A DNA stretch of 24,156 nucleotides from a virus (IMGVR_UViG_644736359_000007), one strand, 5' to 3'; numbered from the stretch's first letter, positions 1,447-23,679 are shown. The notes: generated by a model from the sequence alone, not told the origin. Translations and numbers: made by a program.

Positions 1447-1533
1447 GCTGAAAAACATAACCCATAAAATGCTAGCTGTACCAGGAACCACCTCCTTAGC
1501 CTGTGTAATCTCCCTTACACGGGCTTATTTTTT
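1447..1533 (+). ncRNA. cyaR: CyaR (RyeE) Hfq-dependent small RNA
   Basis: 87-nt sequence GCTGAAAAACATAACCCATAAAATGCTAGC...CCTGTGTAATCTCCCTTACACGGGCTTATTTTTT matches the E. coli CyaR sRNA as I recall it, ending in an intrinsic terminator hairpin (CCTGTGTAA/TTACACGGG) plus U-tract; located immediately downstream of yegQ as in E. coli. Confidence 0.85.
1507..1533. mobile_element. Prophage attL: P2-type att core (AATCTCCCTTACACGGGCTTATTTTTT) overlapping the cyaR terminator
   Basis: 27-mer is the reverse complement of the P2 att core AAAAAATAAGCCCGTGTAAGGGAGATT (from memory); a second copy with one mismatch lies at 23653-23679 next to int. Confidence 0.8.
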
Positions 1534-1596
1534 ACGCGTAATACAATGAAATAAAAGGATTTATTTCTGGTCACGTCCACACATTGACCACATCGA

Positions 1597-1623
1597 CAAA
1601 AAAGCCCCTCGACTGAGGGGCTT
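1597..1623 (-). terminator. Intrinsic terminator downstream of ogr
   Basis: On the minus strand: stem AGCCCCTC / GAGGGGCT with 4-nt loop followed by TTTTTT, 12 nt after the ogr stop codon. Confidence 0.6.
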
Positions 1624-1634
1624 CCTGTTTGTAA

Positions 1635-1853
1635 TTACATCCACATAATTTGCTGCCCTGACGGCAACGGGTGCGGTCTTACGGCGTGGACTTCTCCCGG
1701 CTTCACGATGTATCGCTGTACCGACTCATAAGTGATGAACGTGGCGCTGCAATTCACGTTCTGGCACTGATGATAACGCTCTTTTGTCGTGTCAGTGATA
1801 TAGCGGCTTGTACGCGCATGTGCGGCATGCTGGCATAAAGGACAATGAAACAT
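1635..1853 (-). CDS. ogr: Ogr, zinc-finger late-gene transcription activator (P2 Ogr / E. coli OgrK-like)
   Basis: 72-aa product MFHCPLCQHAAHARTSRYITDTTKERYHQCQNVNCSATF... with C4 zinc-binding cysteines; start taken at the internal ATG (1853) with upstream GGAAGAGG RBS rather than the longer track ORF (1916). Confidence 0.9.
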   Translation of the reverse strand: MFHCPLCQHAAHARTSRYITDTTKERYHQCQNVNCSATFITYESVQRYIVKPGEVHAVRPHPLPSGQQIMWM

Positions 1854-1934
1854 CGCGAGCACCTCTTCCGGTTTGGTTGATGGTGCCATTTTAGTTAAAT
1901 TATCCTTATAAAACAAACAGATAAAATAAAAACA

Positions 1935-2714
1935 TCACTCATCATCTTCTGTTTCGTACTCCACATCAGAAAGCCTGACCTCAAGCTCCAGGGACGTCGT
2001 GAAGCCGCTATTATTCAGAAAATGTGTCACCTTAGTGATTGTCCAGTCCTGCTCGTCTATGACGCGCTTAAAGCCTGACACTTTAACCGGTGTTTCCGTG
2101 TAAATATCAGCACGACCGGTAGCCAGACTGATGGAGAACTCCGCAACGCCCCGTTGCAGCTTATCCCACTTCGCCTGAGCGGCGCGCATGGCCTGCGCTT
2201 TCGTGGCATATACCGTGGTCAGGGCAAAAACGTTGTCAGCCTCACCGGCCATGTATTCACCTTCACGCGCTTCCGGTACTTTAGGCGCTTTCTTCTGCCT
2301 GACCGGTTTCGCGTTCGGGTGCTCCAGTGCGCGCAGGTGTTTCTCTTTCTTTTTGCGTTTCAGTTTTACCTTCTGCTTTTGCGGTTTCGGGTCTTTGGTG
2401 TGTAACCACTTTGCCGTTACGCCTGTATCGTCGCGCTGGTAAGAGCCTGCAAAACGAATCGGCACGGCATCCACACCGGTTGCGGCGTAAAGCTCCCAGA
2501 TAACCGAATCCGGGAATCCACCGAGCGACCACTCCATTGACAGCGCATCGTCATCAAGGCCGAGGTCTACCGGTGCGCTGCCGTTCATCCCCGCACCGCG
2601 ATAGTTTTCGAGCTTACGGGTCAGTTTTGGCAGCGTGACGGACTTTGCAACGCCCTGATAGCTGTAGCCGTTCAGAAAGACGTTCATTAACTTGAGTTTG
2701 CGCGGCATTGCCAT
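1935..2714 (-). pseudogene. Hybrid ORF: N-terminal ~95 aa of P2 tail tube protein FII fused in frame to the C-terminal part of tail protein D (yegZ-like remnant)
   Basis: N-terminus MAMPRKLKLMNVFLNGYSYQG... is the P2 FII start with a strong RBS (AAGGAG); after ...PIRFAGSYQRDDTG the sequence switches to a lysine-rich linker and a C-terminus (...FTTSLELEVRLSDVEYETEDDE) that I recall as gpD-like. Genes E, T, U and most of D are absent, consistent with an internal deletion. Confidence 0.65.
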
Positions 2715-2726
2715 CGGTCAGGCTCC

Positions 2727-3917
2727 TTAATTGCTGTTAACCGAGGTAACCAGACTTGCCAGGTATCTGGAAGTAATACGCTGGCGCAGGGTCAGGTTTT
2801 CGAGAGGAGGCACCGGGGTATAGTCGTAGTCGATATACAGTTTTCCGGCCTTGAGGGTTTCCGCATCATTGGCTTCTTCACTGAACCAGCATGTGCCATC
2901 CACGATATAACCGTTGTTTTTCAGTTCGCGGAATTTGGCATTAATGCCATCAATGATGTCACGAATCAGCGTTGCGGTAATTGGCTTATCAATAGCCCAC
3001 ATGTGCGCCTCGGCCATCGTGTCGGCCAGTACCTGCGCGGTGCGGGTGTAGCTTTCAAAGAGGAACAGCGGGTCATCAGAGCAGGTACGGTTACCCCAGA
3101 AGCGGAAGCCGTCGCGGCGAATCAGCGTAGTGATGCCTGACTCGTTAAGCAGGTCAGCATCAGTACCGGACTTCTGCAAATCCCAGAATACAGAGGCGCT
3201 GATGCCGGTAACACCATTTACCCCGACGTTGGACAGCGTTTTATGCCAGCCCTGCTCCTGGTCGATTTTGGCACGCAGCCCCAGCGCACGGGCGGTGGCA
3301 TACGCGGTGGCAGTGGTACTGGTAACCGTATCCCATGCGAGGAAATCCGGCCAGATGACCATCAGCTCACGCTGGCTGAAATTCTGACGGTAGGCTTTTG
3401 CCTCGGAAATGGTTTTACAGCCCCATGCGCTGATATACCCGAATGCATTCAGTTCCTGGCATACCGATGCCAGTGCGACGGCAACCTCTTTGGTGTCCAG
3501 CCCCGGCACACCAAGAATGCGCGGTTTAACGCCGGTAACCGACTCAGCCCCCATCAGGGCTTTCAGTCCGGTGTACTGACCGTTTTCGTCAGTGGTGCCG
3601 ATGATATTGGAAACGGTCTGCGCGAGTTTCGTTTCCTCGTCGTCGCCGGTGCCGTCTTCCACACGCACGACAACAGTGACCGGTTTTGACTGGTCGGCGA
3701 TAGCCTGCAACGACGCCGCCAGCGTGCCTTTTTTACCGGCCTTTGCAATTGCGCTCTGTACATTGGTAATCAGCACCGGTTTATTGACGGGGAAGGTTTC
3801 CGCATCCGCATCGCTGGCCGTGCAGACCATGCCGACAATGGCCGTGGATACGGTGGAAATGACGCGGGTGCCGTCGTTAATCTCCAGCACCTGCACGCCG
3901 TGATGATAGTCACTCAT
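2727..3917 (-). CDS. FI: Contractile tail sheath protein FI
   Basis: 396-aa product MSDYHHGVQVLEINDGTRVISTVSTAIVGMV... matches P2 gpFI from memory; start at ATG 3917 with GGAG RBS (8-nt spacer). The track ORF extends 50 codons further upstream without support. Confidence 0.9.
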   Translation of the reverse strand: MSDYHHGVQVLEINDGTRVISTVSTAIVGMVCTASDADAETFPVNKPVLITNVQSAIAKAGKKGTLAASLQAIADQSKPVTVVVRVEDGTGDDEETKLAQTVSNIIGTTDENGQYTGLKALMGAESVTGVKPRILGVPGLDTKEVAVALASVCQELNAFGYISAWGCKTISEAKAYRQNFSQRELMVIWPDFLAWDTVTSTTATAYATARALGLRAKIDQEQGWHKTLSNVGVNGVTGISASVFWDLQKSGTDADLLNESGITTLIRRDGFRFWGNRTCSDDPLFLFESYTRTAQVLADTMAEAHMWAIDKPITATLIRDIIDGINAKFRELKNNGYIVDGTCWFSEEANDAETLKAGKLYIDYDYTPVPPLENLTLRQRITSRYLASLVTSVNSN

Positions 3918-4387
3918 CCGTTTAACTCCGTGGTTAATGGGTGCAACTATTTTCTGTTGTGCGAAGCATGAGACGCTATTTGACCTGGCTGGGCAGTGGA
4001 TGAAACAACAGATAAAGAAAAAGTGGGCAACTTGCCCGCCTCTATTTATTGCGGTATACCCAGCCATTCAGGATTTGTTGCTACTCATAATTACCTGCAA
4101 AGAAACAAAGAAAAGATGAAAATACAAGCTGTCTGGTACAAAGAAATCCATCAGACTTCCAACACCCCATACATGTGCCCCCACCACGGTATGCTGCTCC
4201 GCTTCCCTTTGCGGATATTTTCTATCCATCGATTTTCAGCCAGGATATGCACGTGCGCGATGAAGAATGTCACACTACTATTGCCTTGTAAGCCCAGTTC
4301 CCGGTAAGAATAGCAACCAGCATCTGCGCTGCTACAGCACAAAGCGAGTGTATATTTGGGGGGAATATCCTTCATAAACTGTTCGAC

Positions 4388-4413
4388 GAAACCACGCTGT
4401 GGTTTCTCTTGTT
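4388..4413 (+). terminator. Hairpin plus T-rich tail (terminator-like) on + strand
   Basis: GAAACCAC-GCT-GTGGTTTC followed by TCTTGTT; no convincing upstream + strand gene. Confidence 0.35.
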
Positions 4414-4530
4414 ATCAAACCGAGTGGCATTATCACTAGTTTTACTAAATTACCAACTTCACTGTGAATGATATGCATGATAGAATCAGAAAATTAAATT
4501 ATACAGATCTTAATCAATTCCGCGTTTTAT

Positions 4531-4556
4531 GCCCGTTGCTTCCACGGGCTTTTTTT
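4531..4556 (+). terminator. Intrinsic terminator on + strand in ORF-free AT-rich segment
   Basis: GCCCGT-TGCTTCC-ACGGGC followed by TTTTTTT. Confidence 0.5.
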
Positions 4557-4651
4557 AAAAAATCACCTAAAATAAATAATTATATTCACTTTTATTCTAA
4601 TACAGAATAGAATATGAAATCGTCAATTTGTACCATTAATTTTCAAATCTT

Positions 4652-4681
4652 CCCCGCCTTCGAGAGAATGCGGGGCTTTTT
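4652..4681 (+). terminator. Intrinsic terminator-like hairpin on + strand
   Basis: CCCCGC ... GCGGGG stem with 12-nt loop followed by CTTTTT. Confidence 0.4.
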
Positions 4682-4829
4682 ACATGAGTACAACTTCACA
4701 TTAACTATTTTTATACTTATAATTTGCTTTGCTTAAAAATGTTCAAAATGTACGCCAACATATTTAATTATGCTGATTTTATCACCAACAAAACTATCAC
4801 CATGCAAACAATCCCTCGTGTTAGTTATA

Positions 4830-4845
4830 CTGCAATGCATTGCAG
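4830..4845. repeat. Perfect 16-bp palindrome CTGCAATGCATTGCAG, about 115 bp upstream of the leader ORF ATG
   Basis: Exact dyad symmetry seen directly in sequence; plausible binding site for a dimeric regulator. Confidence 0.9.
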
Positions 4846-4959
4846 CATGATGTGCTGATGACTTCATTAAATCATGTCACAATGTTCAGATATAATGCTT
4901 CATGTTATGAGATAGCATTCTGAATATTCATAAACATTATTAACGTTAGAGGTTGCATA

Positions 4960-5146
<187 letters not shown>

Positions 5147-5175
<29 letters not shown>

Positions 5176-6265
5176 TTGCCCTTATTATACTATAAAAGGC
5201 AACACTAAAAAAGAAAACATTTCATCTTCTGCTGTTTTAACAACAGCCCTGCATACTTCTCTTCTAAAAATCACAACGGTAATTAATGAAATTAATTCTA
5301 TTTATCCCTTTGATGTCTCAGTTGTTATTCCGGTTCACAACCGAGAAACCCTTATTCTCGAATGCATTAAATCTTTAAACAATCAGACTATAGATAAAAA
5401 TTGTTTTGAAGTTATTTTCATTGATGACTGTTCCACTGACAGGAGCATTGCCGCCATTGAATATAACATTTCGAGAGAAATAAATTATCGTATTATCCGT
5501 AGAGCAGTTGGTTCAGGGAATGCATCAGCGCCGCGAAATGAGGGAATAAAATCCGCAAAAGGTCGCTATGTGTTTTTCTTAGACTCTGATGATTCCATTC
5601 ACTCTGACTTACTGTCCGATGGTATTCAGATGGCTTATAAAAACAATAGTGACATTGTATATTTCAAGCAGGTTTCCTCTACAGGGAGAGGGGTTCCTGT
5701 ACGCCCATTTAAGGCAGACACGAATAAAGCAGATATTATAAAAAACCATCTTTTTAGATCATTAAAAATCTTCAAGTTCTTTAAAAGAGAGTTGCTAATC
5801 AATAACAACATCTTATTTAACCCATCAATTTCAGTCTATGAGGATATGCTTTTTTCTTGCCAGAGCCTAACTGTAGCTAATACGATATCTATACTGGCAA
5901 GAAAGGGCTACTACTCTCTGAATCGCCATGAAGAACCACATCTATCTAAAACATCTTTCTCCATTAAACAAAGAGCCTTGGTATTACAAACAGGTTTGAT
6001 TTATATCTTATCAAGCAATAAAAATGAAGCAGAAATAGTAAAAATGTTTAATGCATGGCTGGTTATTTGCGTTGAGCACTTGGCATCCATATTATCCAAA
6101 AAAAGTTTAACAACTAATGAGAAGTCTCACGTTTTTAACTTGATACATAAATCACTCTTACCATATACAGGGCTTGTAAATGAGTCCCAAATATATCCCG
6201 CACAAAGAGAGCTTGTCAGTTGCTTAATCTGTGGAGATTATTCTTCTTTTTGCGAAAAAATATAA
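5147..6265 (+). CDS. Family-2 (GT-A fold) glycosyltransferase
   Basis: Conserved GT2 motifs VSVVIPVHN, DDCSTD, APRNEG and FLDSDD in the first ~150 aa. There is no in-frame ATG: candidate starts are GTG 5147 or GTG 5153 (AGGTG RBS-like at 5143-5147), or ATG 4960 after a one-unit change in the AGCC tract. AT-rich, atypical for the prophage backbone. Confidence 0.75.
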
Positions 6266-6304
6266 AAACACTTAACTACAGATACTCCTAACTTTGTATC
6301 TGAC

Positions 6305-6334
6305 GCCCCTCACCCTAAATTAAGGGTGAGGGGC
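6305..6334. repeat. GC-rich inverted repeat (12-bp stem GCCCCTCACCCT / AGGGTGAGGGGC) followed by an A-tract
   Basis: Strong hairpin 40 nt downstream of the GT2 stop; flanked by A-run on the 3' side of the + strand, so not a canonical terminator for either strand. Confidence 0.5.
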
Positions 6335-6476
6335 AAAAAAAATAATTATTTGATGTTATATTTATATGCCATCACATCTTTTAACTCCAGTTGTTACGGG
6401 GAGGACAGTGACTCGTATCAACTAAAGTTTGATCTGTAGATAACACTATTTTAAGCAGATACTCATTAAGGCTTGT

Positions 6477-9335
6477 TTATTCTGAAGTCTCCAACTTCAT
6501 CAAACGACGATTTAAGTCAACAAAGCGTTCCATTAACAAATCCACCTGGCTGACAACAGCACGTAGACACCACCAGAGAAGCTCCTCTTTCCGGAAGCGA
6601 TAACGGCTTCCTGCTTCGGTTGCAGGGCGAACAAGAACCCTTTCCGCCTGTCGGGTAAGCACACGAGTTGTCCCGCTCAACAGCTCCCCTTCATCCGAAT
6701 AAATCGCTGGCTGAACCGGAATATCTTCATACTCTTCCGGTATATCTTCGTACTGTGCCTCCTCCGCTTCCCACGAATCCAGACAAAATGCGCTGTATTT
6801 CCGCCAGTCCAGACCGTGTTTCTCCATCACCGCTATCGCGGCCTGGACTGTCGGCCCGGCGTGCAGACGCGCGTCCTCGCCCTCCTCCTCAATTCTCTGT
6901 AACCAGCGCCACACGCCCGGAAGCCGTGCTATTTCTGCAAATGCCGCGTTTTCGGCTGCCGTCGCATCGCGCGGTGTATCCTTTAACGTCGCATCCGACA
7001 CAACGGTCGGCGAGTTGCAGAGATACACGCTCCGGAACGCTTTGTTGGGCGCACCCAGGTCGCTGGTATTGTTAACCGATGGCCGGAATGCACCGTTAAT
7101 ATCTGTATCCATCTGCATGAATGCAGTGCCGTCACTACGGGCTGCAATTACATAAGCGTCAGCAGAATCGTCATAAATACCCAGATTCCCGGCTGTTGAT
7201 ACCTGGAAAGCTCCCGCCTTCAGCGTGGTGCTGATGGCCATGCGCTTCTGGGTTTCGTCATCCGATTTAATATTCACGCCCTGCAGGTATGCCACATTCC
7301 AGCGATTTGGCGATGACCCCAGATTCATTGCCTTGTCCTGGTCGGGATGAAATGCCGGCGAGACCGGACTCAATAATACAGACCAGGTCTCACTGCCATC
7401 GGTACAATAAAGCCTTGTGCGCCCCGCCGACTGAGTATCGTTCATTGAGTAAAGGTTAATCCCGCCACCGCTCAACAAATCCACGTCAGCGCGTATTTCC
7501 AGACAATCGTGCACGGTGTTCAGTCGGTGTTTCCACTGAACGAAGCGGCCTGTGTATTCTCCGGTTCGGAACGCATCCCCGTACAAACGAAAAACAGCAG
7601 CAGAAGTGTCTGTATCCGGAGCCTCCTTTCTGACCTCAAATAACGGGCGATGCGAGCGCAGATTCTGCTCATAGGCTGCCACCTGGAAGTCTTCATTGGG
7701 TGACAGGGCAATATTTACAGCATTGGGACTCAGAAAAAGGCTAGCATGGCTGTCAGGAAACGCCACGCCGGAGTCCACCAGATAGCCTGTGCCGTCGTAA
7801 GCCTCCACGGAAACCACAGCTTTGCTGCGTTTTGTCGCCACGCCACACGTATAAGACTTCGTGGCATCATATTTCGTTGCAGCCGCCGTTCCATATGCTG
7901 TAGGCGTCCAGTAAGATGGATTCACCGGGGAACGGCCAGAAAAATTTGTTGCACGTGCTGCAAAGTATGCCCCCTCAAAAGAAACCACATCTGCTGTCTG
8001 ACACCAGAAATCCATATCGAGCAGATACAGTTTTCCGTTATGAAGAGCCAGCCCTTCGGCTTCCTGCAAAACGGGATACCCCAGCTCTGCATTCCCCAGC
8101 ATTTTCTGGCGGCCATACCTGGCACGAACGCCATCCACATTGAACTGTCTGACAACTTCGCCCGTTGACAGGTTATATACAACAATGCGGTGAGTCAGAA
8201 ATACGCCTGTATAACCGTAATAAGCAAACAGATAATGACCATCGCTGGCCATCCCCTGAAATGCCTGCGACACCATTGACTGGGTGGACAGATAAATCCG
8301 GTGTTTAAACGTCAGAGAAGCGCGATCGAAAACATAAACTGTGCGGCGGTCATCCCTGTTGTAATGAAGATGGACGGCTTCATTACTTGACTGAACAATC
8401 AACAGGCTTCCGTCTACCGACAATGCCACCGTTATAATTTCATCCCCGGTAAAAAAGTCAGAGGTGAAAATCTCCGTACGGGTGACATCTGTCAGACTGG
8501 TGTCAGCCCCATTCCAGTTGATGATATTCACACCCTTGCCGTCAGCGGTCGGGGTATACAGCATCACGCGACCGTCTTCACATACAGCCCCGATACTCTG
8601 GTGACCAATATCAGCGAAAACGGGAGAAAACGAAATGACCGTCGGGTTTTCGTTTTCTCCGTCAGGGTTAAATGTCGTTTCAACAATCCTTACGCCACCC
8701 GATACAGGCTGATGCAGAAACATTCTGGTTCCCTGCGGCGTATCACAGATACAGAACCCCTGACTCATATTATCCGCACCGTCAAAAATCCCGGCGTAGT
8801 CAATATCGTGGACAACTTTATGCTGAAGAACCACATCATCAATGACAGTACGATGAAAACTGGATATGGCTTTATCGACGTAATCCTGCGTCGCCATCAC
8901 CGTGCTGGCATCAATACTCAGCTCAACAGACGCCACGTTACTGACAATAATAACCATGCGGCAGGTCTGCGCACGCCCGGAGCCTTCAGCCAGTTCAGGC
9001 TTATAGCTTTCTACCATGTTAGCGACCGCAATCAGTGTTCCGGCATCGTCATACAGACCAAGTTCACGCATCCAGAAGCCGCCCACTTCTGGCGGTACAA
9101 CCAGTTCAGCCACGATATAGTTTTTATTCTTGTTATCCACGCTGACTTTATTCAGGGCGTGACGCCAGACCTCATGCACCAGTTTCGTCTGACCAGCATC
9201 CGGCACCGGCAATTTGCCATTACCGTCACCCACGGCCATTGCAGACAGGGTTACTTTTTTCCCGCCGGGGACAGTGGCGGCTGCCAGCTTTGCGGCTCCG
9301 GCAGTAGTGATAACGGTTTTAAATTTCGTGCTCAT
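6477..9335 (-). CDS. H: Tail fibre protein (P2 gpH-like N-terminal anchor domain with a divergent, longer distal region)
   Basis: N-terminal ~150 aa (MSTKFKTVITTAGAAKLAAAT...WRHALNK...GGFWMRELGLYDDAGTLIAVANM...) matches P2 gpH from memory; 952 aa versus 669 aa in P2; positioned directly after gene I as in P2. Confidence 0.8.
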   Translation of the reverse strand: MSTKFKTVITTAGAAKLAAATVPGGKKVTLSAMAVGDGNGKLPVPDAGQTKLVHEVWRHALNKVSVDNKNKNYIVAELVVPPEVGGFWMRELGLYDDAGTLIAVANMVESYKPELAEGSGRAQTCRMVIIVSNVASVELSIDASTVMATQDYVDKAISSFHRTVIDDVVLQHKVVHDIDYAGIFDGADNMSQGFCICDTPQGTRMFLHQPVSGGVRIVETTFNPDGENENPTVISFSPVFADIGHQSIGAVCEDGRVMLYTPTADGKGVNIINWNGADTSLTDVTRTEIFTSDFFTGDEIITVALSVDGSLLIVQSSNEAVHLHYNRDDRRTVYVFDRASLTFKHRIYLSTQSMVSQAFQGMASDGHYLFAYYGYTGVFLTHRIVVYNLSTGEVVRQFNVDGVRARYGRQKMLGNAELGYPVLQEAEGLALHNGKLYLLDMDFWCQTADVVSFEGAYFAARATNFSGRSPVNPSYWTPTAYGTAAATKYDATKSYTCGVATKRSKAVVSVEAYDGTGYLVDSGVAFPDSHASLFLSPNAVNIALSPNEDFQVAAYEQNLRSHRPLFEVRKEAPDTDTSAAVFRLYGDAFRTGEYTGRFVQWKHRLNTVHDCLEIRADVDLLSGGGINLYSMNDTQSAGRTRLYCTDGSETWSVLLSPVSPAFHPDQDKAMNLGSSPNRWNVAYLQGVNIKSDDETQKRMAISTTLKAGAFQVSTAGNLGIYDDSADAYVIAARSDGTAFMQMDTDINGAFRPSVNNTSDLGAPNKAFRSVYLCNSPTVVSDATLKDTPRDATAAENAAFAEIARLPGVWRWLQRIEEEGEDARLHAGPTVQAAIAVMEKHGLDWRKYSAFCLDSWEAEEAQYEDIPEEYEDIPVQPAIYSDEGELLSGTTRVLTRQAERVLVRPATEAGSRYRFRKEELLWWCLRAVVSQVDLLMERFVDLNRRLMKLETSE

Positions 9336-9345
9336 TGTTTCTCAC

Positions 9346-9876
9346 TTATCCGGGATAAACAGTAATAACATCACCATCACAGACCACACCGCCTGTATAC
9401 AGATAGCCGGGAATGTCCTGGATAATGTTCAGACCGATAAGGTGGCGACTTGCGGGTTTGGCATCGGCAATCAGCCGTTCCATTTCCAGATACATCTCCT
9501 CCGTGATGCCGCTTTCCAGTACGCCGATATCAAGGCGGAAGGTTCCGGGCGGGTCGTTTGTCTCCCACCATTCCTTTACGTTAATTAGATAGCCTAGCGG
9601 CTCCACCACACGCCGGATTGCACCTATAGTGCCTTTATGACAGTGGATGAAATACGCATCGCGGATAACGGCGCGTTTTGTCGCTTCCGGCCACTTTTCA
9701 TCCCATCTGTCGACCGAAAACGCCCACGCCAGCCACGGCAGCAGATTTGCCGGGCAGGTGTCCGGGTTCCACAGCTCACGAATACTGACCGGTGTTTTTT
9801 CAATTTCCGCACAGGCTTTTGCGGCGGCGACCTCAAGCGGTGATGAGCCGGTCGGCAGCAGTCGCGAATCACTCAT
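9346..9876 (-). CDS. I: Baseplate assembly protein I
   Basis: 176-aa product with P2 gpI length and sequence character; gene order J-I-H conserved. Confidence 0.85.
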   Translation of the reverse strand: MSDSRLLPTGSSPLEVAAAKACAEIEKTPVSIRELWNPDTCPANLLPWLAWAFSVDRWDEKWPEATKRAVIRDAYFIHCHKGTIGAIRRVVEPLGYLINVKEWWETNDPPGTFRLDIGVLESGITEEMYLEMERLIADAKPASRHLIGLNIIQDIPGYLYTGGVVCDGDVITVYPG

Positions 9877-10777: not shown

Positions 10778-10781
10778 GGTT

Positions 10782-13784: not shown

Positions 13785-13803
13785 GTGCTTTCCCCGCCTC
13801 GCC
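13785..13803. other. cos site (19-nt P2-type cohesive end sequence)
   Basis: GTGCTTTCCCCGCCTCGCC is the reverse complement of GGCGAGGCGGGGAAAGCAC, the P2/186 cohesive end as I recall it; located between Q and the old/tin position as in P2. Confidence 0.7.
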
Positions 13804-13931
13804 CGCCCGCTTCATGGGGCGGTTTTAATGCGGTTGAATTTTATCGAAAGTCACGTCACACAAAACCTTCCCTTCACTAAATAGACTCATTATCCACATG
13901 CAATCTAATTCAAAAAAATGCATGTATAGTA

Positions 13932-15902: not shown

Positions 15903-16264
15903 TTCTCCTTGAAGACTTTGTTTATAACAGAGTTTAACTTAGAGGTAGGCAATGCTTGTAGCGGTAACAATGCTTCGGCTAGTCGTTTTATTTCTTTAAA
16001 ATATCCATCAGTCAATGAGCTAGCAAATTCCTTACCTTTTTCAGATAAAAATAATTTAACACTCTCATTATTTTTTTTCTCAGCTGAGAGCAATCCCCGC
16101 AATGACATAATTTTTATAAGATATTTCACTTTGGAATTGTCGAATAAGATATCTACATTTGATGAAAAACTCTTTATTGTATAAGTTAACTGGGACTCGA
16201 CACAAGCAGGCTTTTTCCCCGAAACTGTAAGAGCACAATCAATTTTTGATGGATTTTTTATCAC
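15899..16264 (-). CDS. Small hypothetical protein encoded between the hydrolase and the ATPase (candidate LmuC-like accessory)
   Basis: 121-codon ORF (GTG start at 16264; alternative ATG at 16108 would give 70 aa); stop overlaps the ATPase start (ATGA), indicating translational coupling; AT-rich. Confidence 0.5.
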   Translation of the reverse strand: MIKNPSKIDCALTVSGKKPACVESQLTYTIKSFSSNVDILFDNSKVKYLIKIMSLRGLLSAEKKNNESVKLFLSEKGKEFASSLTDGYFKEIKRLAEALLPLQALPTSKLNSVINKVFKEK

Positions 16265-16399
16265 AGATACATAAAAATTTGTATTTTATTAATATCTAAT
16301 GACAACACTCCTTTTTTACTATGAGATAATATAGATATAGCAATGGCAAGCATAGCAAAATTCAAACTATACTCTTCATCAAGAGGTATATACGGCAAG

Positions 16400-17623
16400 T
16401 TATTTTTCTTCATGATTACCTCGCCGTAATTGCTCCAAAGTTTCTACGCTGGTTTCAGATGACCAGACAATATCCCTGTCATTTTTGTTAGCCAGTTGAT
16501 GCAACATTCCTTTCTTATGTATCGTTTCCAAACTTTTTATAAGAGAATCTAACGACGACTTATCCTCCTGGGTTATTCGTCTATGAACAGCAGCAATAAA
16601 TTTATCTGGGGAAATTGAATTTGCAATGTATTGCTCATACTCTTCCTGGTAAATCTCCCTTATTTTAGAATACAAATGACCAAGTTGTTTTCTATCGTAA
16701 TCACTCGTAAAAATATTTCTCGCAAGCTCAGCATTATAATAATATTCCTTTGCATGCAGAGCGATATCCTGATGTATATCTGCGACAATCATTTTTAAGA
16801 CGAAATACTCATTATCATATTGTTTATCATCAGAAAAACGCTCAACGCAAATCTTCTTGGGTGCTTCTAAATTTATCTGCTGAATAAATTGCTTTACCGC
16901 AACAAACACTGTAGACGAGCTATTTTCGGGCTTGCAAATTGAGCTATGCCCTTCATTAACTGCAATTGAGTTATGTCGTTCACTATCCATCGGTAATGCG
17001 CTTTTTTTATCGACTATAGTGTCATGAGATCCATAAACATATCTAGTGATAGGAAGTTTTTTGCTACAATTTATCCAGCGCCTATTCAATGTATCAGTCG
17101 CTTCACTTAACAATCCAAGATCTACTAACTGAGCATTTGAAGATACCATTGAAGTTATATTCGCTAATTTAGCACCAAAGTGAGGGACTGCTAACGAAAT
17201 GAATCCAATTATATTAGATTGTTCCTCATGCTCAACTTTTTTTAGAATTAGATTTTTTGATATTAACCCCCCCATACTATGGGCGATTATTATAATTCGA
17301 GAGTAATCACTTAGTGTTACTCTAATCTCAGTATACAATAACTCAGCTATTTCATCAGTTGGTAAATTTCTCTCTAACTTATTTTTCTTAAAGAAAATAC
17401 GAGCCAAGAATCCTGACGTTTTAGCATACGTTTGTGTGAATTTAGTAAAATAATTGAAACATGCAATATCAAATACGTTGCTAATATCTTCATCTTCTGC
17501 TAATAGTTTTGGAAATGAAATTTCTTTATTAAAGTTCCATGTTTCCAAACCACCATTTAATCCATGTACAAATAGTATCAGGCTATCTTTTTTCTCGTGG
17601 CTTATCCATTCAACCATGCTCAT
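16400..17623 (-). CDS. Alpha/beta-hydrolase (lipase/esterase-like) domain protein with a C-terminal helical domain (candidate LmuA-like effector)
   Basis: 407 aa; N-terminal LILFVHGLNGG and nucleophile-elbow IIIAHSMGGL (GXSXG-type, about 17267-17284), then candidate Asp (GSHDTIVD) and His (NEGHSSIC) in Ser-Asp-His order; C-terminal ~160 aa charged/helical; sigma70-like promoter (TTGTTT-N16-TATACA) just upstream. Confidence 0.7.
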   Translation of the reverse strand: MSMVEWISHEKKDSLILFVHGLNGGLETWNFNKEISFPKLLAEDEDISNVFDIACFNYFTKFTQTYAKTSGFLARIFFKKNKLERNLPTDEIAELLYTEIRVTLSDYSRIIIIAHSMGGLISKNLILKKVEHEEQSNIIGFISLAVPHFGAKLANITSMVSSNAQLVDLGLLSEATDTLNRRWINCSKKLPITRYVYGSHDTIVDKKSALPMDSERHNSIAVNEGHSSICKPENSSSTVFVAVKQFIQQINLEAPKKICVERFSDDKQYDNEYFVLKMIVADIHQDIALHAKEYYYNAELARNIFTSDYDRKQLGHLYSKIREIYQEEYEQYIANSISPDKFIAAVHRRITQEDKSSLDSLIKSLETIHKKGMLHQLANKNDRDIVWSSETSVETLEQLRRGNHEEK

Positions 17624-17711: not shown

Positions 17712-19994
17712 CTACCACTCACGCTGTCTGTCAAAAAAGTCGATATCGGTATCAAATTTAAAACGCTTATGCCCAAAATCCAAAACAGCTCCGCGAGCGA
17801 GAGCTTCAAGCTCCCAATAACTAGCCTGAATGTCACTTTGTGCAAGAAGAACCTTAATTTTCGGGATAGTCTTTCTCTCCTGCCTTGTCAACCGGGCGGA
17901 TGGGGCAGGAAAGTAGCTTCGACCATTGAAAGGAGTAAAGCTCTGCTGTGAACGATTACTGCATTTCAGTTCATTACTCAATAAGTCTCTAAGTACCTTC
18001 ATAATGCCTGGCTCGGTCCAACTTAGAATCCCTTCATCTATAAAATTTAACACCGCTGCAGCATGCTCAGTCGGTGTGGGAGCCGATAACGAAGTATCAC
18101 CACCGGTGAGCTTTCCACAGTTATTGACAGGACTCCGAGGCGCGGCGATGCCGCTTTTTAAAGTCAAAGGCTCCACGACCGGAACTTTCGGCACAATGCG
18201 CCAGTCCGTCGTTCTGGTGATATGAATATGACGCGCGCCGAGATGCGGCGCGTAAATGCCGACCACTCTCTCGACTTCTTCCTCGTACTCGTTAACTTCA
18301 TCCGACGGGCTACGGGCGACTCTGACAGTCTGGCAATCGCGCGGAACATTTGCCCCACCCTGCGCACTGATATACAACGCAAAATCGCCACTGTCTGCGG
18401 CAGCGCGTGCAGCCTCGACGCGTTCGTCAAACTCATCAGCAATGCTGACGCCGCGAGGCAATTTGCGTAGTTCACGGTAAGCCCCCATTGTCGGCAGACC
18501 AACCGTTTTAAATTGCGGGATGCGCCACGTTGACGCCCATGCAGTAACAGCCGCGGCAGTATCTTTCAGAGGTCTGCCGGTATCGTTATCGAGCTGACCA
18601 TCCAGTGCATAGCCGTCGATGTTTTTTGAGATGTATTTCGCGATATACCCCGCAGCACCGCCCCGATTAAGGTGTTTTGCCTGAAAACGGTTTCGCGCGG
18701 CTCCTCTTTCGTCGCCATCCTCTTTGAGCGCATAGCGACGCATGATTTCGATAATCTGGTTACGCTGGCGCGGATTACAAAAAAGCATCATATGCCAGTG
18801 CGGCGTTCCGTCGTGATGTGGCTCGACGACACGCAAACCGTAGACCTGTAAATCATTATCCTTGAATGCCGTGCGCATCAGGCTCCAGATACGGCAGAGA
18901 TAACGCTGCGCATCCTTTGGATTAAATGCCTCATCGTTCCAGCCGTGATTTAGCTGGACGGTTTTACTTTCGCCTTTTCCAACCTGACGTGTCGGGTGAT
19001 ACTTTGACGGCGCGGTCAGCGTGATAAACATCCCCACATCACCCTCTGCTGCGGCGTAACGCTCAATACCGGCAATGGTGTTCATCAGCTCCATCCGGCG
19101 AATTTCAGGATTAGAAATACTGCCCATCACCTTACTGATAAGGTCGATGCGCTCGCCGGTTTCCCTGTTTTCGAGATCACACGATTTAAGAAATTCCAGA
19201 TTTGCCTGGCGGCGTGCACGCACATCACGAATGGCATGTTTACTGGCATAAGGAGAACGGTCTTTATTGACCTCCCCGACAGCAATCAGTAACGCCTCAT
19301 GCCAGCGCATACGCTGGCCTTTGAGCTGATGAGTCCACCACTCATCGTTAAACAGACGGGCAATGGCAGAATATGCCTGCCTCGTGGTCATCTGTCCTTT
19401 ACGGTATTTTTTCCAGTAAAGCGGGGAAATATTGAAAGCACGTGCAGCGCCAGCAACATGACCATAGAGGTGAGCCTGCGCCTCATCCGTAAACAGCGAT
19501 TCTTTTTCGCCATGTGCATCCACCCAGGCATCGCTGAGTTCCTCATACATCATGAAAAGCTGCGATGAGATACGGGCGGCAAACTTTTTCAGCTCCTTGT
19601 CATTCATTCCCGGCAGGCGCGCATAGTGGTCACGCTCTGCCAGAAACAGCAACGACGCGTCGGTGTTCATTTCATGGCGCTGATTCACACGCTCAATGCA
19701 CGGCCATAAACGACGCTGAAAAGTGGATGTGAGGAAATAAAACCCGTGCACCGGGCTTTTATTGCGCCGGATGTAGTCATAGTGTGAAGTAAACAGCGAG
19801 CGCAAAAAGTAAGGCAGGCGGTTAATCGTGGATAAAACACCTTGCACCTGACGCATCTCGTCACGTGTAAGGGGTCTTTCGCGCCCGACGGCCTCGCGTG
19901 GCGCGTTCCATGCATAAGCACCGGTAAACGTCTTACCGGTGCCTGCGGCAAATGCTGACGGAGGGACAAAACGCCCGGAGGCTTTAACGGCCAT
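17712..19994 (-). CDS. A: Replication initiation protein A (rolling-circle nickase)
   Basis: 761-aa product starting MAVKASGRFVPPSAFAAGTGK... matching P2 gpA over most of its length from memory; start set at ATG 19994 rather than the longer track ORF; C-terminal ~120 aa diverge from P2. Confidence 0.9.
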   Translation of the reverse strand: MAVKASGRFVPPSAFAAGTGKTFTGAYAWNAPREAVGRERPLTRDEMRQVQGVLSTINRLPYFLRSLFTSHYDYIRRNKSPVHGFYFLTSTFQRRLWPCIERVNQRHEMNTDASLLFLAERDHYARLPGMNDKELKKFAARISSQLFMMYEELSDAWVDAHGEKESLFTDEAQAHLYGHVAGAARAFNISPLYWKKYRKGQMTTRQAYSAIARLFNDEWWTHQLKGQRMRWHEALLIAVGEVNKDRSPYASKHAIRDVRARRQANLEFLKSCDLENRETGERIDLISKVMGSISNPEIRRMELMNTIAGIERYAAAEGDVGMFITLTAPSKYHPTRQVGKGESKTVQLNHGWNDEAFNPKDAQRYLCRIWSLMRTAFKDNDLQVYGLRVVEPHHDGTPHWHMMLFCNPRQRNQIIEIMRRYALKEDGDERGAARNRFQAKHLNRGGAAGYIAKYISKNIDGYALDGQLDNDTGRPLKDTAAAVTAWASTWRIPQFKTVGLPTMGAYRELRKLPRGVSIADEFDERVEAARAAADSGDFALYISAQGGANVPRDCQTVRVARSPSDEVNEYEEEVERVVGIYAPHLGARHIHITRTTDWRIVPKVPVVEPLTLKSGIAAPRSPVNNCGKLTGGDTSLSAPTPTEHAAAVLNFIDEGILSWTEPGIMKVLRDLLSNELKCSNRSQQSFTPFNGRSYFPAPSARLTRQERKTIPKIKVLLAQSDIQASYWELEALARGAVLDFGHKRFKFDTDIDFFDRQREW

Positions 19995-20259
19995 ATGAGC
20001 CAAAAGCCTCTGAACAACGCTTGCTGAGTTGCTCAACCTGCGCGTTTAAATCAGCAAAAGACTTTGCGCTTCCGGTAAGAATATCGTGATGCATCAGGCC
20101 GGAAACGAGCTGGCTTAATTTCGGGTAATAACCAACCACCGCCAGCCATTCCTGACCGGCGTTTTTACCGCTTTCCGCTCTCTTTTTCTCGTGGAGAATA
20201 AACTGAAAGCTGTCACTGGTAACGACATAACGTTCGCCAATTTCAATACGAATACTCAT
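19984..20259 (-). CDS. P2 early-region small protein (orf83-like)
   Basis: 91-aa ORF with GGAGAA RBS, immediately upstream of A and overlapping its start, as in the P2 B-A interval. Confidence 0.6.
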   Translation of the reverse strand: MSIRIEIGERYVVTSDSFQFILHEKKRAESGKNAGQEWLAVVGYYPKLSQLVSGLMHHDILTGSAKSFADLNAQVEQLSKRCSEAFGSYGR

Positions 20260-20480
20260 GCCGTTCTCCGGTAATGTTTGTTTTTTGCTTCAAAGACTGA
20301 CTGACAGGAAACACAACGCGTGGCTGACGGGTAAGCCGCACGACGGGCAGCAGGTATTGGCGCGTTACACTCTTCGCAAACCAGCGCAGAAGCACCGCAA
20401 TGTTTTACCCTTGCCGCGTTAATCTGGCGCTCCAGTAATTCAGCCTGTTGTTCCTGAATAAAATCTACGTTGTCCGGCAT
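20256..20480 (-). CDS. DksA/TraR-family C4 zinc-finger protein
   Basis: 74 aa with CEEC...CVSC motif pair; AAGGAG RBS; 4-nt overlap with the downstream ORF. Confidence 0.65.
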   Translation of the reverse strand: MPDNVDFIQEQQAELLERQINAARVKHCGASALVCEECNAPIPAARRAAYPSATRCVSCQSVFEAKNKHYRRTA

Positions 20481-20482
20481 TA

Positions 20483-20782
20483 TCAGCTCCTTTTATCGTT
20501 AAGTTTCCTGGATACATCAGCGCAATAACTGGCAAGTTCTGTCGTTAATTTTGTCAGTTCATCCACTGAGGAAATTTGCTTGTGGAATACAGCGCGTTTA
20601 ACAAGTAAATTGACCACATCAGACAGGAGGTTTAATTCATTCTGATAAATCGCGATAACAGATTCAGTTATGTCGCGTTTTTCTTTATCAAGGCAAAGTT
20701 GAATAAGAGACAAATCGCCATTTTTCATAACGGCGATTTTTAAGGCGTTATTCAGTAATACAACTGAATGAGAACAGGACAT
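20483..20782 (-). CDS. P2 early-region small protein (hypothetical)
   Basis: 99-aa ORF starting at ATG 20782, which overlaps the upstream stop (ATGA). Confidence 0.5.
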   Translation of the reverse strand: MSCSHSVVLLNNALKIAVMKNGDLSLIQLCLDKEKRDITESVIAIYQNELNLLSDVVNLLVKRAVFHKQISSVDELTKLTTELASYCADVSRKLNDKRS

Positions 20783-21006
20783 CAAAGCACCTCCCCGCGA
20801 GACAATCCGATATTGTGAAATTTTTCCGACTCCTGACTGAGCAGCTCGACTATCTCCACGCGGGATAACTCCGCCTTTGTGATATGGCGAATCATGGCGT
20901 CAAGATGAGAAGAAAAGCGTGTCGCTGCGTCGGCATGTGCTTCGGCTCTGGCCTGTTGCAGCAGTAATGCGTATTTACCGCACTTGTTTTCAGAAACTGT
21001 ATGCAT
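20782..21006 (-). CDS. P2 early-region small protein (hypothetical)
   Basis: 74-aa ORF with GGAGAA RBS. Confidence 0.5.
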
Positions 21007-21069
21007 GACTTTCTCCAGGCAAAAAGAAGCCCCGCACGATTAAGTGCATTAAAAACTCTGGTTAATTAT

Positions 21070-21570
21070 TTAATGCAGATATTGCTCTGGTTTTACCGAC
21101 GTCAGAATTGTCGGTGCATACTCAAACAGGCTGAATAATTCACGTAATGCACGGAATAAAGCATCACGCCAGTAACATGATTCTTCATTAATTCGCCAGT
21201 ATGGCTGGTTGAATTCTTTTTCAGTCAATCCGGCATGCATAAATAAAGTACGACGCTGACTGACTGTTAAAAAACTAATATATGCATACTCACTTGCGCC
21301 AACCTGACGGCGTTTTGAGAATGCCCCACGCAATTCATCAATTGCACAAACCAGCCGTTCACGTTCGACGTCGTTCATTTCTTCAAAACGCATCGTTGCG
21401 TGACGCTGTTTTAACTGCGCATGGAAGCAAACCGTTAGCCGTTCGCGTTCCATCATCTGATTATAATAATCGCATGTCTCCTGCCAGCGAGGGACGGCCA
21501 GATGCTTACCAATTATCCGGCGCATAGCTGCTGGCTGTTTTTCAACGAGATTGAGCGTCATCACTGTCAT
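21070..21570 (-). CDS. B: Replication protein B (helicase-loader-like)
   Basis: 166-aa product (P2 gpB length), in the expected position between cox and A. Confidence 0.8.
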   Translation of the reverse strand: MTVMTLNLVEKQPAAMRRIIGKHLAVPRWQETCDYYNQMMERERLTVCFHAQLKQRHATMRFEEMNDVERERLVCAIDELRGAFSKRRQVGASEYAYISFLTVSQRRTLFMHAGLTEKEFNQPYWRINEESCYWRDALFRALRELFSLFEYAPTILTSVKPEQYLH

Positions 21571-21737
21571 TTCCAGACCCTCCGGCTTTTCAGAAAGGTC
21601 AGAGCCTTTTTTAACGGACTCTGTTTTTTGGTGCGGATAATGATTCCCTTACGCCCCTTACCGTGGGTGATGGTGAAGTCAATCGCCCTAGGGCTTTCGT
21701 TACGCAATAACTGAGCAATACAACGAGGCTCATTCAT
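21567..21737 (-). CDS. Small early protein (orf78-like)
   Basis: 56-codon ORF from ATG 21737 with strong AAGGAGAA RBS; stop overlaps the B start (ATGA); the track's GTG start at 21761 would overlap cox. Confidence 0.5.
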   Translation of the reverse strand: MNEPRCIAQLLRNESPRAIDFTITHGKGRKGIIIRTKKQSPLKKALTFLKSRRVWK

Positions 21738-21747
21738 ACGGTTCTCC

Positions 21748-22023
21748 TTAACGTGGTTCACCGAGACCTAACCACATCAACCAGCCGTCACGAATCTCTT
21801 TAGGACGGCTTTCATAAGCCAGTTTTAGTCCGTTATTCCATGCCGGAAGGTATACCCAATATTCACCAGCACGCCCCGATACTGACTGAGGGTCAGTAAT
21901 CTCAATAACTGGTAATTTCCCTTTCTCAATCATGCCCCTTACAGCTCTTGGAGTTTTACCAATGAGTTTTGCAAACTCCTGATAAGGCACGGCATCAGTC
22001 ACGCTTACAAGCTGTCTATTCAT
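21748..22023 (-). CDS. cox: Cox (excisionase / repressor of Pc)
   Basis: 91-aa product with C-terminus ...SGRAGEYWVYLPAWNNGLKLAYESRPKEIRDGWLMWLGLGEPR matching P2 Cox from memory. Confidence 0.85.
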   Translation of the reverse strand: MNRQLVSVTDAVPYQEFAKLIGKTPRAVRGMIEKGKLPVIEITDPQSVSGRAGEYWVYLPAWNNGLKLAYESRPKEIRDGWLMWLGLGEPR

Positions 22024-22144
22024 CTGCTACGATTCTCCCTTAGTGCTTCTAATGGCTCCTAATGGCTAATTATTGCCTAAAAGGATAACTCCAGAAGCAC
22101 AACATTTCACACTATCAGCAAGAAATTACGCAATCGGAGTAATT
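22024..22144. promoter_or_regulatory. Immunity switch region (Pe/Pc promoters and operator) with tandem direct repeat CTAATGGCT-C-CTAATGGCT (22049-22067)
   Basis: Intergenic region between divergently oriented cox and C; two perfect 9-bp direct repeats with 10-bp periodicity, consistent with P2-type repressor operators, which are direct repeats. Confidence 0.5.
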
Positions 22145-22444
22145 ATGTCAATAGACGTTTCGGAGAAGTTGAAGCTAATCCGTGAATCTGAAAGGTTAAA
22201 CCGTAAAGAATTCAGTGAATTAACTGGTGTAGCCTACAGCTCACTTTCGAGCTATGAGAGCCGGTCAAAAAACGCTGGAGTTGAAGCCATAATGAAGGTC
22301 TTACAACATCCTAGATTTACTAAATATACTTTGTGGTTCATGACTGATCAGGTAGCTCCAGAAGCCGGGCAAATTGCGCCCGCTCTCGCACACTTTGGGC
22401 AAAACGAAACAACGTCGCCCCACTCCGGTCAAAAGACTGGTTAA
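22145..22444 (+). CDS. C: Immunity repressor C
   Basis: 99-aa product from ATG 22145; C-terminal half (...FTKYTLWFMTDQVAPEAGQIAPALAHFGQNETTSPHSGQKTG) matches P2 C from memory; N-terminal DNA-binding region divergent, suggesting a distinct immunity specificity. Confidence 0.85.
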   Translation: MSIDVSEKLKLIRESERLNRKEFSELTGVAYSSLSSYESRSKNAGVEAIMKVLQHPRFTKYTLWFMTDQVAPEAGQIAPALAHFGQNETTSPHSGQKTG

Positions 22445-22482
22445 CAATTTATCGTGAATATATTCATCACAAGTGCCTACTA

Positions 22483-22505
22483 TTGGTGGCTAAATTTCAG
22501 CCACC
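22483..22505 (+). promoter_or_regulatory. Hairpin (TGGTGGCT-N7-AGCCACCA) between C and int
   Basis: 8-bp inverted repeat in the 115-bp C-int spacer, followed by an A-run; possible attenuator or processing site. Confidence 0.3.
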
Positions 22506-22559
22506 ACGAAAAAAGCGATTAGTAGTAGCAAAAAAAAGTACCACTCGGAGGGTTTTCTG

Positions 22560-23573
22560 ATGGCAATCAAAAAACTCGATGATGGTCGATATGAAGTGGA
22601 CATCCGCCCTACTGGACGTAATGGAAAACGCATCCGTAGGAAGTTTGATAAGAAAAGCGAAGCTGTCGCTTTCGAAAAATACACGTTGTACAACCACCAC
22701 AATAAAAAATGGCTATCAAAACCAACAGACAAACGACGTCTGTCGGAACTGACACAGATCTGGTGGGATTTAAAGGGTAAACACGAAGAGCATGGGAAAT
22801 CTAATCTTGGAAAAATTGAAATCTTCACAAAAATAACGAATGACCCATGCGCATTTCAAATCACGAAATCCCTTATCAGCCAGTACTGCGCCACCCGAAG
22901 AAGTCAGGGTATTAAACCTTCGAGTATCAATCGTGATTTAACATGTATTAGCGGCATGTTTACAGCCCTGATTGAAGCGGAGTTATTCTTTGGTGAGCAC
23001 CCTATCAGAGGGACAAAGAGGCTTAAGGAGGAAAAACCAGAAACAGGCTATCTCACACAGGAAGAAATTGCCTTACTGCTTGCAGCACTTGACGGCGACA
23101 ATAAAAAGATTGCGATTCTTTGCCTGAGTACAGGAGCACGTTGGGGAGAAGCAGCTCGTTTGAAAGCAGAAAATATCATCCATAACCGCGTCACGTTTGT
23201 TAAAACGAAAACAAACAAACCACGCACCGTCCCGATCTCAGAGGCTGTTGCCAAAATGATCGCGGATAACAAACGAGGTTTTTTATTCCCTGATGCTGAT
23301 TACCCTCGCTTCAGACGAACAATGAAAGCAATAAAACCGGATTTGCCAACGGGGCAAGCCACACATGCACTAAGGCACAGCTTTGCCACTCATTTCATGA
23401 TTAATGGAGGAAGTATTATCACGCTACAACGGATACTAGGTCACACGCGGATTGAGCAAACTATGGTTTACGCTCATTTTGCGCCAGAGTACCTTCAGGA
23501 CGCCATTTCTCTTAATCCGCTAAGAGGTGGTACTGAGGCCGAGAGTGTCCACACAGTGTCCACAGTAGAGTAA
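22560..23573 (+). CDS. int: Tyrosine integrase
   Basis: 337-aa product MAIKKLDDGRYEVDIRPTGRNGKRIRRKFDKKSEAVAFEKY... with C-terminal catalytic residues (R...HALRHSFA...LGH...Y); GGAGGG RBS; adjacent to the att core. Confidence 0.9.
   Translation: MAIKKLDDGRYEVDIRPTGRNGKRIRRKFDKKSEAVAFEKYTLYNHHNKKWLSKPTDKRRLSELTQIWWDLKGKHEEHGKSNLGKIEIFTKITNDPCAFQITKSLISQYCATRRSQGIKPSSINRDLTCISGMFTALIEAELFFGEHPIRGTKRLKEEKPETGYLTQEEIALLLAALDGDNKKIAILCLSTGARWGEAARLKAENIIHNRVTFVKTKTNKPRTVPISEAVAKMIADNKRGFLFPDADYPRFRRTMKAIKPDLPTGQATHALRHSFATHFMINGGSIITLQRILGHTRIEQTMVYAHFAPEYLQDAISLNPLRGGTEAESVHTVSTVE
23545..23564. promoter_or_regulatory. Tandem direct repeats GTGTCCACA (x2, 11-bp period) inside the int 3' end: putative Int arm-type binding sites
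   Basis: Repeats seen directly; related GTCCACACA and GACCACAT motifs occur in the opposite arm next to attL (1574-1596); position about 90-110 bp from the att core. Confidence 0.4.
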
Positions 23574-23652
23574 CGTTTAAGGGCTTTCAGTGGTAATTTA
23601 TGCCGCTCAAACCCGCATTGTACCGTTGAAAGCCCCTACTGGTGACACCCTA

Positions 23653-23679
23653 AATATCCCTTACACGGGCTTATTTTTT
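23653..23679. mobile_element. Prophage attR: P2-type att core copy (AATATCCCTTACACGGGCTTATTTTTT, one mismatch)
   Basis: 23 of 27 positions form an identical run with 1511-1533; directly follows int. Confidence 0.75.

Follow-up and report, generated by a model that had tools for sequence, protein, structure and literature searches.

The defective P2-related prophage of Escherichia coli strain B is said to have been known genetically since Cohen's work of 1959, through the isolation of P2 Hy dis, and it was reportedly described again with the B genome sequences by Jeong et al. and Studier et al. in 2009; the locI/locH naming presumably belongs to the same history. In a comparison of laboratory strains, the entries for the cyaR site are a P2-type element called P2*B in B (REL606) and 'ogr-D'' in K-12 (Archer et al. 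2011, PMC3032704, Table 2). The DNA analysed here, the viral entry IMGVR_UViG_644736359_000007 (24,156 nucleotides, referred to as the window), carries a 22.2 kb prophage at 1507-23679, bounded by 27-bp attachment (att) cores. This element is the catalogued defective P2-like prophage P2*B, in the version carried by REL606, which Int has integrated at the 3' end of cyaR. Our reading as a whole, to which we give a probability of about 0.85, is that the known P2*B has undergone recent decay, which is still ongoing, and that its domestication has not been demonstrated. The element is already known, and what is added here is its exact breakpoints, the comparison with sister strains and the state of its cargo in REL606.

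Over its whole length, the window was 100% identical to complete genomes of strain B and of B derivatives, and its locus is yegQ–cyaR…yegR, with yegQ/trhP (1-1362) and yegR (23839-24156) as the flanks. An exact look-up of its integrase variant (E50K) led to the REL606 genome (CP000819.1) and to many assemblies of sequencing runs, and the window therefore comes from REL606 or a descendant. Compared with ten other B-lineage assemblies, the window differs by five substitutions, one 2-bp insertion and a shorter repeat tract. The substitutions (at 354, 3165, 16318, 19700 and 22707) are all G-to-A and lie within 24 kb, and among them, relative to the other B strains, are the missense changes Int E50K and A R99C. 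This clustered pattern suggests chemical mutagenesis in the REL606 lineage, and we presume that the G-to-A changes go back to treatment of that lineage with N-methyl-N'-nitro-N-nitrosoguanidine (MNNG).

The span of 1507-23679, which had already been proposed from the sequence alone, was borne out by the two att cores, of which the one in attL also provides the 3' terminator of cyaR. The features at the two ends of the element are as follows.

1445-1530, plus strand: cyaR small RNA gene (Rfam RF00112, 100.7 bits, full length), overlapping the core at 1507-1533.
1507-1533: attL core of 27 bp, 27/27 against the P2 attP core.
1532-1596, minus strand: attL integration host factor (IHF) site and Int P-arm site (P arm 28/28, IHF site 29/34 against P2).
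23539-23679: attR, with the Int P' arm (27/27), the Cox boxes (74/74) and the core at 23653-23679 (26/27).

The gene inventory was made by tblastn of all 42 P2 proteins against the window, and the breakpoints were placed by blastn alignment to P2 (NC_001895). The alignment consists of six colinear blocks with 92-98% DNA identity.

Window 1507-2426: P2 24382-23463.
Window 2414-4041: P2 19155-17524.
Window 8874-12863: P2 13195-9206.
Window 12858-13803: P2 945-1.
Window 18031-22001: P2 29997-26027.
Window 22315-23679: P2 25720-24356.

Matches were obtained for 22 P2 proteins, and judged by gene order, sequence and the att and cohesive-end (cos) sites, all of which fit, the element is a P2-like (Peduovirus) prophage. 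In the whole window, tblastn found no P, O, N, M, L, X, Y, K, lysA, lysB, lysC or R, and no G, fun(Z), E, T, U, orf91, tin or old. Truncated genes were found for Q (amino acids (aa) 93-343), S (aa 92-150), FII (aa 1-101) and D (aa 225-387, or 42% of the protein), and likeness to P2 H is limited to the first 163 residues of the fibre in the window. Full-length open reading frames (ORFs) remain for ogr, FI, I, J, W, V, orf30, A, orf83-80, B, orf78, cox, C and int. With the genes essential for virion production and for lysis gone, the element is, on this inventory, a defective (cryptic) prophage. A tailocin (R-type bacteriocin) was considered and rejected, the tube being truncated and E, T, U, R, X, the tape measure and the lysis genes lacking.

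Most of this agrees with the sequence-only reading, which had described the prophage as morphogenesis-defective, with int, C, cox, B, A, ogr and cos intact: the gene losses bear out the defect, which extends to lysis, and the full-length ORFs and a cos identical to that of P2 fit the predicted integrity of the other modules. Its list of absent genes stands for E, T, U, R, the lysis cassette, L to P, the 5' part of Q and most of D, and has to be corrected for S, of which the last 59 codons are kept, and for G. The tail fibre has its own chaperone domain, so that a separate assembly protein should not be needed and G does not count among the losses; strain Z0117EC0062 carries an apparently intact prophage at this locus (L003), with the same module and equally without G. 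The truncation of FII and the absence of X had been omitted from the list. As the lost genes left no tblastn trace in the window, they have not been rearranged to another place within it.

Compared with L003, which shares the same 952-aa fibre, the glycosyltransferase island and the orf30 homologue, the late region of the window differs by two deletions, of 4,306 and 8,260 bp. The first (4.3 kb, from mid-FII to mid-D) took out FII'–E–T–U–D' and has an imperfect 13/15 microhomology at its junction, where FII(1-101) is fused in frame to D(225-387). The second (8.3 kb, from mid-S to mid-Q) took out S'–R–lysis–X–L–M–N–O–P–Q', with a microhomology of 3-6 bp. Microhomologies of this kind are the signature expected of spontaneous illegitimate recombination. 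The functions removed are the capsid, the terminase, most of the portal, lysis, the tail tube, the tape measure and tail completion, and the reconstructed ancestor would have been about 34.7 kb. The late-region DNA that remains is 99.4-99.6% identical to L003, with no further late gene damaged, which indicates that the deletions are recent. The remnants at the two junctions are listed below.

1935-2714, minus strand: FII(aa 1-101)::D(aa 225-387) in-frame fusion ORF of 259 aa, made by the first deletion (junction 2414-2428).
12702-12881, minus strand: S' remnant (aa 92-150), the last 59 codons (tblastn).
12858-13616, plus strand: Q' portal remnant (aa 93-344; tblastn, blastn), with the junction of the second deletion at 12858-12863.

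The fusion ORF lies downstream of the kept F-operon promoter region. The Ogr-site region of pF is present but has diverged from P2 in a global alignment, and it lies within a segment that is 99.4% identical to L003.

Both junctions were looked for in 5,426 complete E. coli genomes, a collection without REL606 (NC_012967). They were found in 10 genomes, all of them B stocks or derivatives, and uninterrupted sequences at the junction sites were found in about 1,640; the reduced architecture is therefore confined to the B lineage and is not conserved across diverged lineages. An assembly artefact or a rearrangement, which the sequence-only reading had named as possible refutations, would have placed the missing genes elsewhere or collapsed them in assembly. 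Ten independent complete assemblies have identical junctions, the tblastn search gave none of the missing genes, and this explanation was rejected, its probability being practically negligible.

A sister isolate, H1827/12 from human blood (NZ_CP013031.1; L004 14765-29768), matches the window at 99.95% identity, both in the flanks and in all prophage DNA that the two have in common, and its Lamassu proteins and its A, C, Cox and Int are the same as those of the other B stocks. Its deletions are different, D' being joined to J' and lysB' to Q', and the breakpoint in D is shifted by 21-23 bp relative to B. As a whole, neither architecture could have given rise to the other; taken singly, each junction may have come about by enlarging an earlier, nested one. 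An IMG/VR isolate of the B lineage (L011; 5927-5937) has both B junctions and a third deletion corresponding to window 6594-11392 (H' to V'). In a metagenome contig (L013; 5121-5123), the fibre gene has lost 87 bp in frame (window 8406-8492).

Alignment to the K-12 locus, one of the checks proposed along with the survey across E. coli, showed that K-12 keeps window 1-2147 joined to 23662-24156, with 2148-23661 gone, and this junction was found in 359 of the 5,426 genomes. Between K-12 and B the right flank is 100% identical, and the left flank together with ogr-D' is 97.9% identical, a contrast that suggests separate histories for the two sides of the site.

The far end of the series is the B derivative BL21(DE3) (NC_012971.2; L008 30951-31280), which has an empty site between yegQ and yegR. 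In it, window position 1533 is followed directly by 23680, so that 1-1533 and 23680-24156 meet at one 27-bp core without any scar. Its flanks are of the B type (the yegQ and yegR proteins are identical to those of strain B), and since other B stocks and REL606 carry the prophage, this is a precise loss in the BL21 lineage. A scar-free empty site implies that excision works, and it is the expected product of Int/Cox recombination between attL and attR. The attB junction that had been proposed as a target for a polymerase chain reaction is thus seen directly as sequence in BL21(DE3), in agreement with the view that excision could occur. A search of the literature on the long-term evolution experiment for excision of this prophage gave only unrelated prophages.

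Apparently intact prophages at the same site complete the comparison. The one in O157:H7 TW14359 (L016 1-29770) is P2-like, with C and Cox identical to those of B and Lamassu at 97%, and has a different (invertible) fibre module. The B element therefore reads as a mosaic of the L003 type and the TW14359 type, minus two segments. Strain B has a second P2-family (186-like) prophage at rybB (NZ_CP115178.1; L015 19689-43162), with retron cargo and a parallel defect: it is without N, M, L, X, Y, FI, FII, E, T and U, and keeps D' (aa 275-382) and an ogr-like gene. Seen across these genomes, the cyaR locus is a graded erosion series and not a conserved reduced form, and both deletions in the window are recent and private to the B clone, with erosion continuing in its relatives. 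The series, from intact prophages through B, H1827/12 and L011 to K-12 and the precise loss in BL21, offers a datable example of stepwise erosion.

The element had also been credited with three intact cargo islands. Of these, one is the homologue of P2 orf30, an ordinary P2 gene, and the other two carry a frameshifted lmuC and a glycosyltransferase gene in the OFF frame. The accessory genes are located as follows.

4042-6476: AT-rich island at the Z/fun hotspot (G+C content 33-37%), without a DNA match to P2 and shared with L003.
4960-6265, plus strand: family-2 glycosyltransferase gene (Pfam PF00535), with a (CAGC)7 tract at 5114-5144 (Tandem Repeats Finder).
11845-12630, plus strand: orf30 homologue ('cargo island 2') of 261 aa, 84% identical to P2 Orf30 over its full length (phrog_2407).
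13932-17623, minus strand: Lamassu (ABC-3C) defence operon at the old/tin hotspot (PADLOC, Pfam).
13932-15902, minus strand: lmuB (PADLOC LmuB 1e-233).
15899-16413, minus strand: lmuC (PADLOC LmuC 3e-52 for the B reference allele; Pfam MC4).
16400-17623, minus strand: lmuA (PADLOC LmuA 1e-108), an alpha/beta-hydrolase (DUF676) with CTD8.

By these assignments, the three-gene operon LmuA/LmuB/LmuC is a Lamassu (ABC-3C) system. In the strain of the window only, a 2-bp CA insertion at 16262-16263 in lmuC leads to a stop at codon 51, and the gene is intact in ten other B genomes and in H1827/12. Because of this frameshift, REL606 is probably without a working Lamassu. Comparisons of phage sensitivity would therefore not be isogenic in this respect: lmuC is frameshifted in REL606, other B stocks have Lamassu intact and BL21 has none.

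In the glycosyltransferase gene, with n=7, the leader ORF (4960-5175) and the body (5147-6265) are in different frames, which is the OFF state. In an E. coli homologue that has not expanded the repeat, one uninterrupted reading frame of 429 aa runs across the position of the tract. In 28 genomes the (CAGC)n tract had n=7-66, and B derivatives that are isogenic differ in it (34, 35 or 45); one fused glycosyltransferase coding sequence is annotated exactly when n is a multiple of 3. The tract lies inside the reading frame, n is hypervariable in close relatives and the gene would be ON in one of three frames, so that it looks like a tetranucleotide contingency locus, that is, a phase-variable gene. 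A small beta-rich domain is split by the tract; it is N-terminal in the E. coli glycosyltransferase and C-terminal in homologues from Campylobacter and Psychrobacter, an apparent domain permutation. Papers on evolution experiments know the tract as a hypermutable site in 'ECB_01992', with no function assigned (PMC7750951, PMC10195153). The hypermutable ECB_01992 of those experiments would be the leader of a phase-variable prophage glycosyltransferase.

Replacements at Z/fun and old/tin are the usual hotspot variation of P2-like phages (PMC9122126), and the accessory genes of this element (Lamassu, the phase-variable glycosyltransferase and orf30) would be such as intact P2-like phages ordinarily carry at their hotspots, and do not speak for domestication. 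In the opposite view, which the sequence-only reading had preferred to random decay, selection for these three cargo units would keep the element together with its maintenance modules, while the morphogenesis genes would be purged. It is in line with this view that all deletions in B, H1827/12 and L011 fall in late genes and that the Lamassu proteins of B and H1827/12 are identical, and a 2026 survey of defective P2-like elements with conserved defence genes raised domestication as an open question (PMC13586616). However, the deleted architecture is confined to one clone, so there is no long-term conservation that needs to be explained, and the cargo is normal for the apparently intact prophages of L003 and O157:H7 TW14359, the latter of which also has the same C and cox. 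Two of the three cargo units are not expressible in this strain, where lmuC has its frameshift and the two parts of the glycosyltransferase gene are in different frames, and the whole element was lost in BL21 and all but ogr-D' in K-12. Intact baseplate, fibre and sheath genes were also kept, which selection for cargo does not predict.

The placement of the deletions was compared with a uniform model, in which they fall at random and independently within the element and the late region makes up 70% of the ancestral prophage. Under this model, the probability that both deletions of the window fall in the late region is p=0.40, and adding the events of the relatives gives p=0.13 for four events and p=0.05 for five. 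Random placement was not rejected; selective maintenance for the cargo is not supported, and weak selection is possible. With junctions found in B only (10/5,426), p=0.40 for its own deletions and different deletions in the sister strain, the claim that the element is domesticated and kept for its cargo is not supported, and we consider domestication unlikely.

The same pattern could also arise from which deletions a cell or an element survives. Loss of C while cox, A and the origin of replication (ori) are kept would kill the cell or cure it of the prophage, and a deletion that reaches into the attL core would cost cyaR its terminator. The states seen at the locus, namely late-region deletions (B, H1827/12, L011), near-total loss (K-12) and precise excision (BL21), are those that such a constraint would leave; the near-total loss in K-12 keeps the cyaR side, the attL core is the 3' end of cyaR, and the A nickase and ori are intact. 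On the other hand, independent events are few, and a constraint of this kind is compatible with recent decay rather than exclusive of it. We hold it to be a tentative possibility, though a better one than domestication.

Some observations weigh against the reading of a known P2*B in recent and ongoing decay. None of the five deletions seen in the B clade touches the early region, Lamassu, cos or ogr (product p≈0.05 given independence), which leaves room for weak selection or constraint. D'-ogr was kept in four independent remnants, which are P2*B, H1827/12, K-12 PR-X and the rybB prophage. In REL606, the changes E50K in Int and R99C in A may affect the function of these proteins. The excision in BL21 could in principle have been RecA-mediated between the 26/27-bp repeats, which is the less likely alternative. 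A single genome says little about domestication, and the confirmation of a known element mainly serves to prevent over-interpretation.

The immunity region bears on how the element would interact with other phages. Its C repressor is 64.6% identical to P2 C, and the published identity between the C repressors of P2 and P2 Hy dis is 63%. The Hy dis-specific 16-mer primer A3-44 has an exact match at 22180-22195 and is absent from P2. From the identity of C and the match of the primer, the immunity class is that of P2 Hy dis, predicted to be heteroimmune to P2. The published Hy dis operator has two 8-bp half-sites 26 bp apart, which flank the -35 of Pe; a scan of 22001-22160 for 8-mers repeated at 26-bp spacing (≤1 mismatch), in which the published half-site sequences were not used, gave none. 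The immunity region of the viable phage vB_EcoM-720R8 is 99.7% identical to the window. A Hy dis-type C repressor would keep the early operon silent, and since the element is heteroimmune to P2, P2 could grow in B. In the classical account, superinfecting P2 rescues markers from the B prophage, and an immunity region of the Hy dis type fits this account. The element would serve superinfecting P2-like phages as a reservoir of alleles through homologous recombination.

With the excision, replication and packaging sites retained, helper-mediated mobilisation is plausible. At ori ±20 bp the window is 41/41 against P2, and the cos block of about 55 bp, common to P2, P4 and L003, is complete. Int and Cox would excise the element, with no cell lysis and no particles. 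In its strongest form, the element would be a helper-dependent mobilisable island, a 'proto-satellite', whose excised circle replicates from its own ori, is packaged from cos by a P2-like helper and spreads the defence cargo. The integrity of int, cox, att, A, B, ori and cos at sequence level and the excision documented by BL21 are in its favour, as is the predicted heteroimmunity, which would permit P2 to grow in B. P2-size heads can hold P4 dimers, and the circle of 22,146 bp is 0.66 of P2, close to two P4 genomes. Against it, no copy was found at another site or in another lineage among the 5,426 genomes, and the IMG/VR matches are colinear chromosomal fragments of the B lineage. No helper-manipulating genes were found, every ORF being a P2 homologue or hotspot cargo, and the deletions are very recent. 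The rybB prophage of B is also without N, M, L, E, T and U; as it is itself defective, B has no resident helper, and this candidate was rejected. Being a P4-like satellite implies helper-exploitation genes and no structural remnants, and here the sheath, baseplate and fibre genes remain. We regard such an island as highly unlikely.

The same can be said of the wider proposal that the element is a selectively retained 22-kb unit for excision, replication and cos packaging, spread by helpers with Lamassu and the phase-variable glycosyltransferase, to which we give very little credence. If it were true, the repeated retention of ogr-D' in independent remnants would reflect selection on a host-kept Ogr.

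The other genes and sites of the element are listed below. The tail fibre has an H-type N-terminus, a foreign distal part and a C-terminal Peptidase_S74 intramolecular chaperone domain (Pfam), and ogr is one that we take to be functional in B and K-12.

1635-1853, minus strand: ogr, late-gene activator of 72 aa, 100% identical to P2 Ogr (promoter 28/30, terminator 23/24).
2727-3917, minus strand: FI tail sheath, intact, 396 aa, 94% identical to P2 FI, with a protein accession shared with the intact relative.
6477-9335, minus strand: tail fibre, intact, 952 aa (PF12571 at aa 1-151, PF13884 at aa 780-842).
9346-11761, minus strand: baseplate genes I, J, W and V, intact and full length, with 94-99% aa identity to P2.
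13778-13832: cos, with the 19-nt cohesive end at 13785-13803 (19/19 against P2) and the flanking conserved block.
17712-19994, minus strand: replication gene A with ori, 91% aa identity to P2 A, nick region 18116-18156.
19984-22023, minus strand: early operon orf83, orf82, orf81, orf80, B, orf78 and cox, full length, 84-100% identical to P2 (cox at 84%).
22145-22444, plus strand: immunity repressor C of the P2 Hy dis type.
22560-23573, plus strand: integrase of 337 aa, 99.4% identical to P2 Int.

When set against the systems already described, the element shows no difference from P2*B (PMC3032704), with the same strain, site and sequence. With P2 and P2 Hy dis it shares synteny, and the cos end, attP core, Int arms, Cox boxes and ori are identical to those of the window; in contrast to P2, it is without 12.6 kb of late genes, and the distal part of the fibre and the Z/fun and old/tin islands are replaced. 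The prophages of L003 and TW14359 and phage vB_EcoM-720R8 differ from it in having kept all morphogenesis and lysis genes. The cryptic prophage PR-X of K-12 (cyaR-ogrK-yegZ) is like the B element in its site, its attL core, ogr and the 3' end of D, but everything between the middle of D and the interior of the attR core is gone from it, and with this int, the immunity and replication regions, cos and the cargo. The satellite P4 resembles the B element in having a P2-type cos block of about 55 bp, its own integrase and replication and a defence hotspot. However, P4 carries the helper-exploitation genes sid, psu, delta and epsilon and no late-gene remnants, whereas the B element is a recent deletion product.

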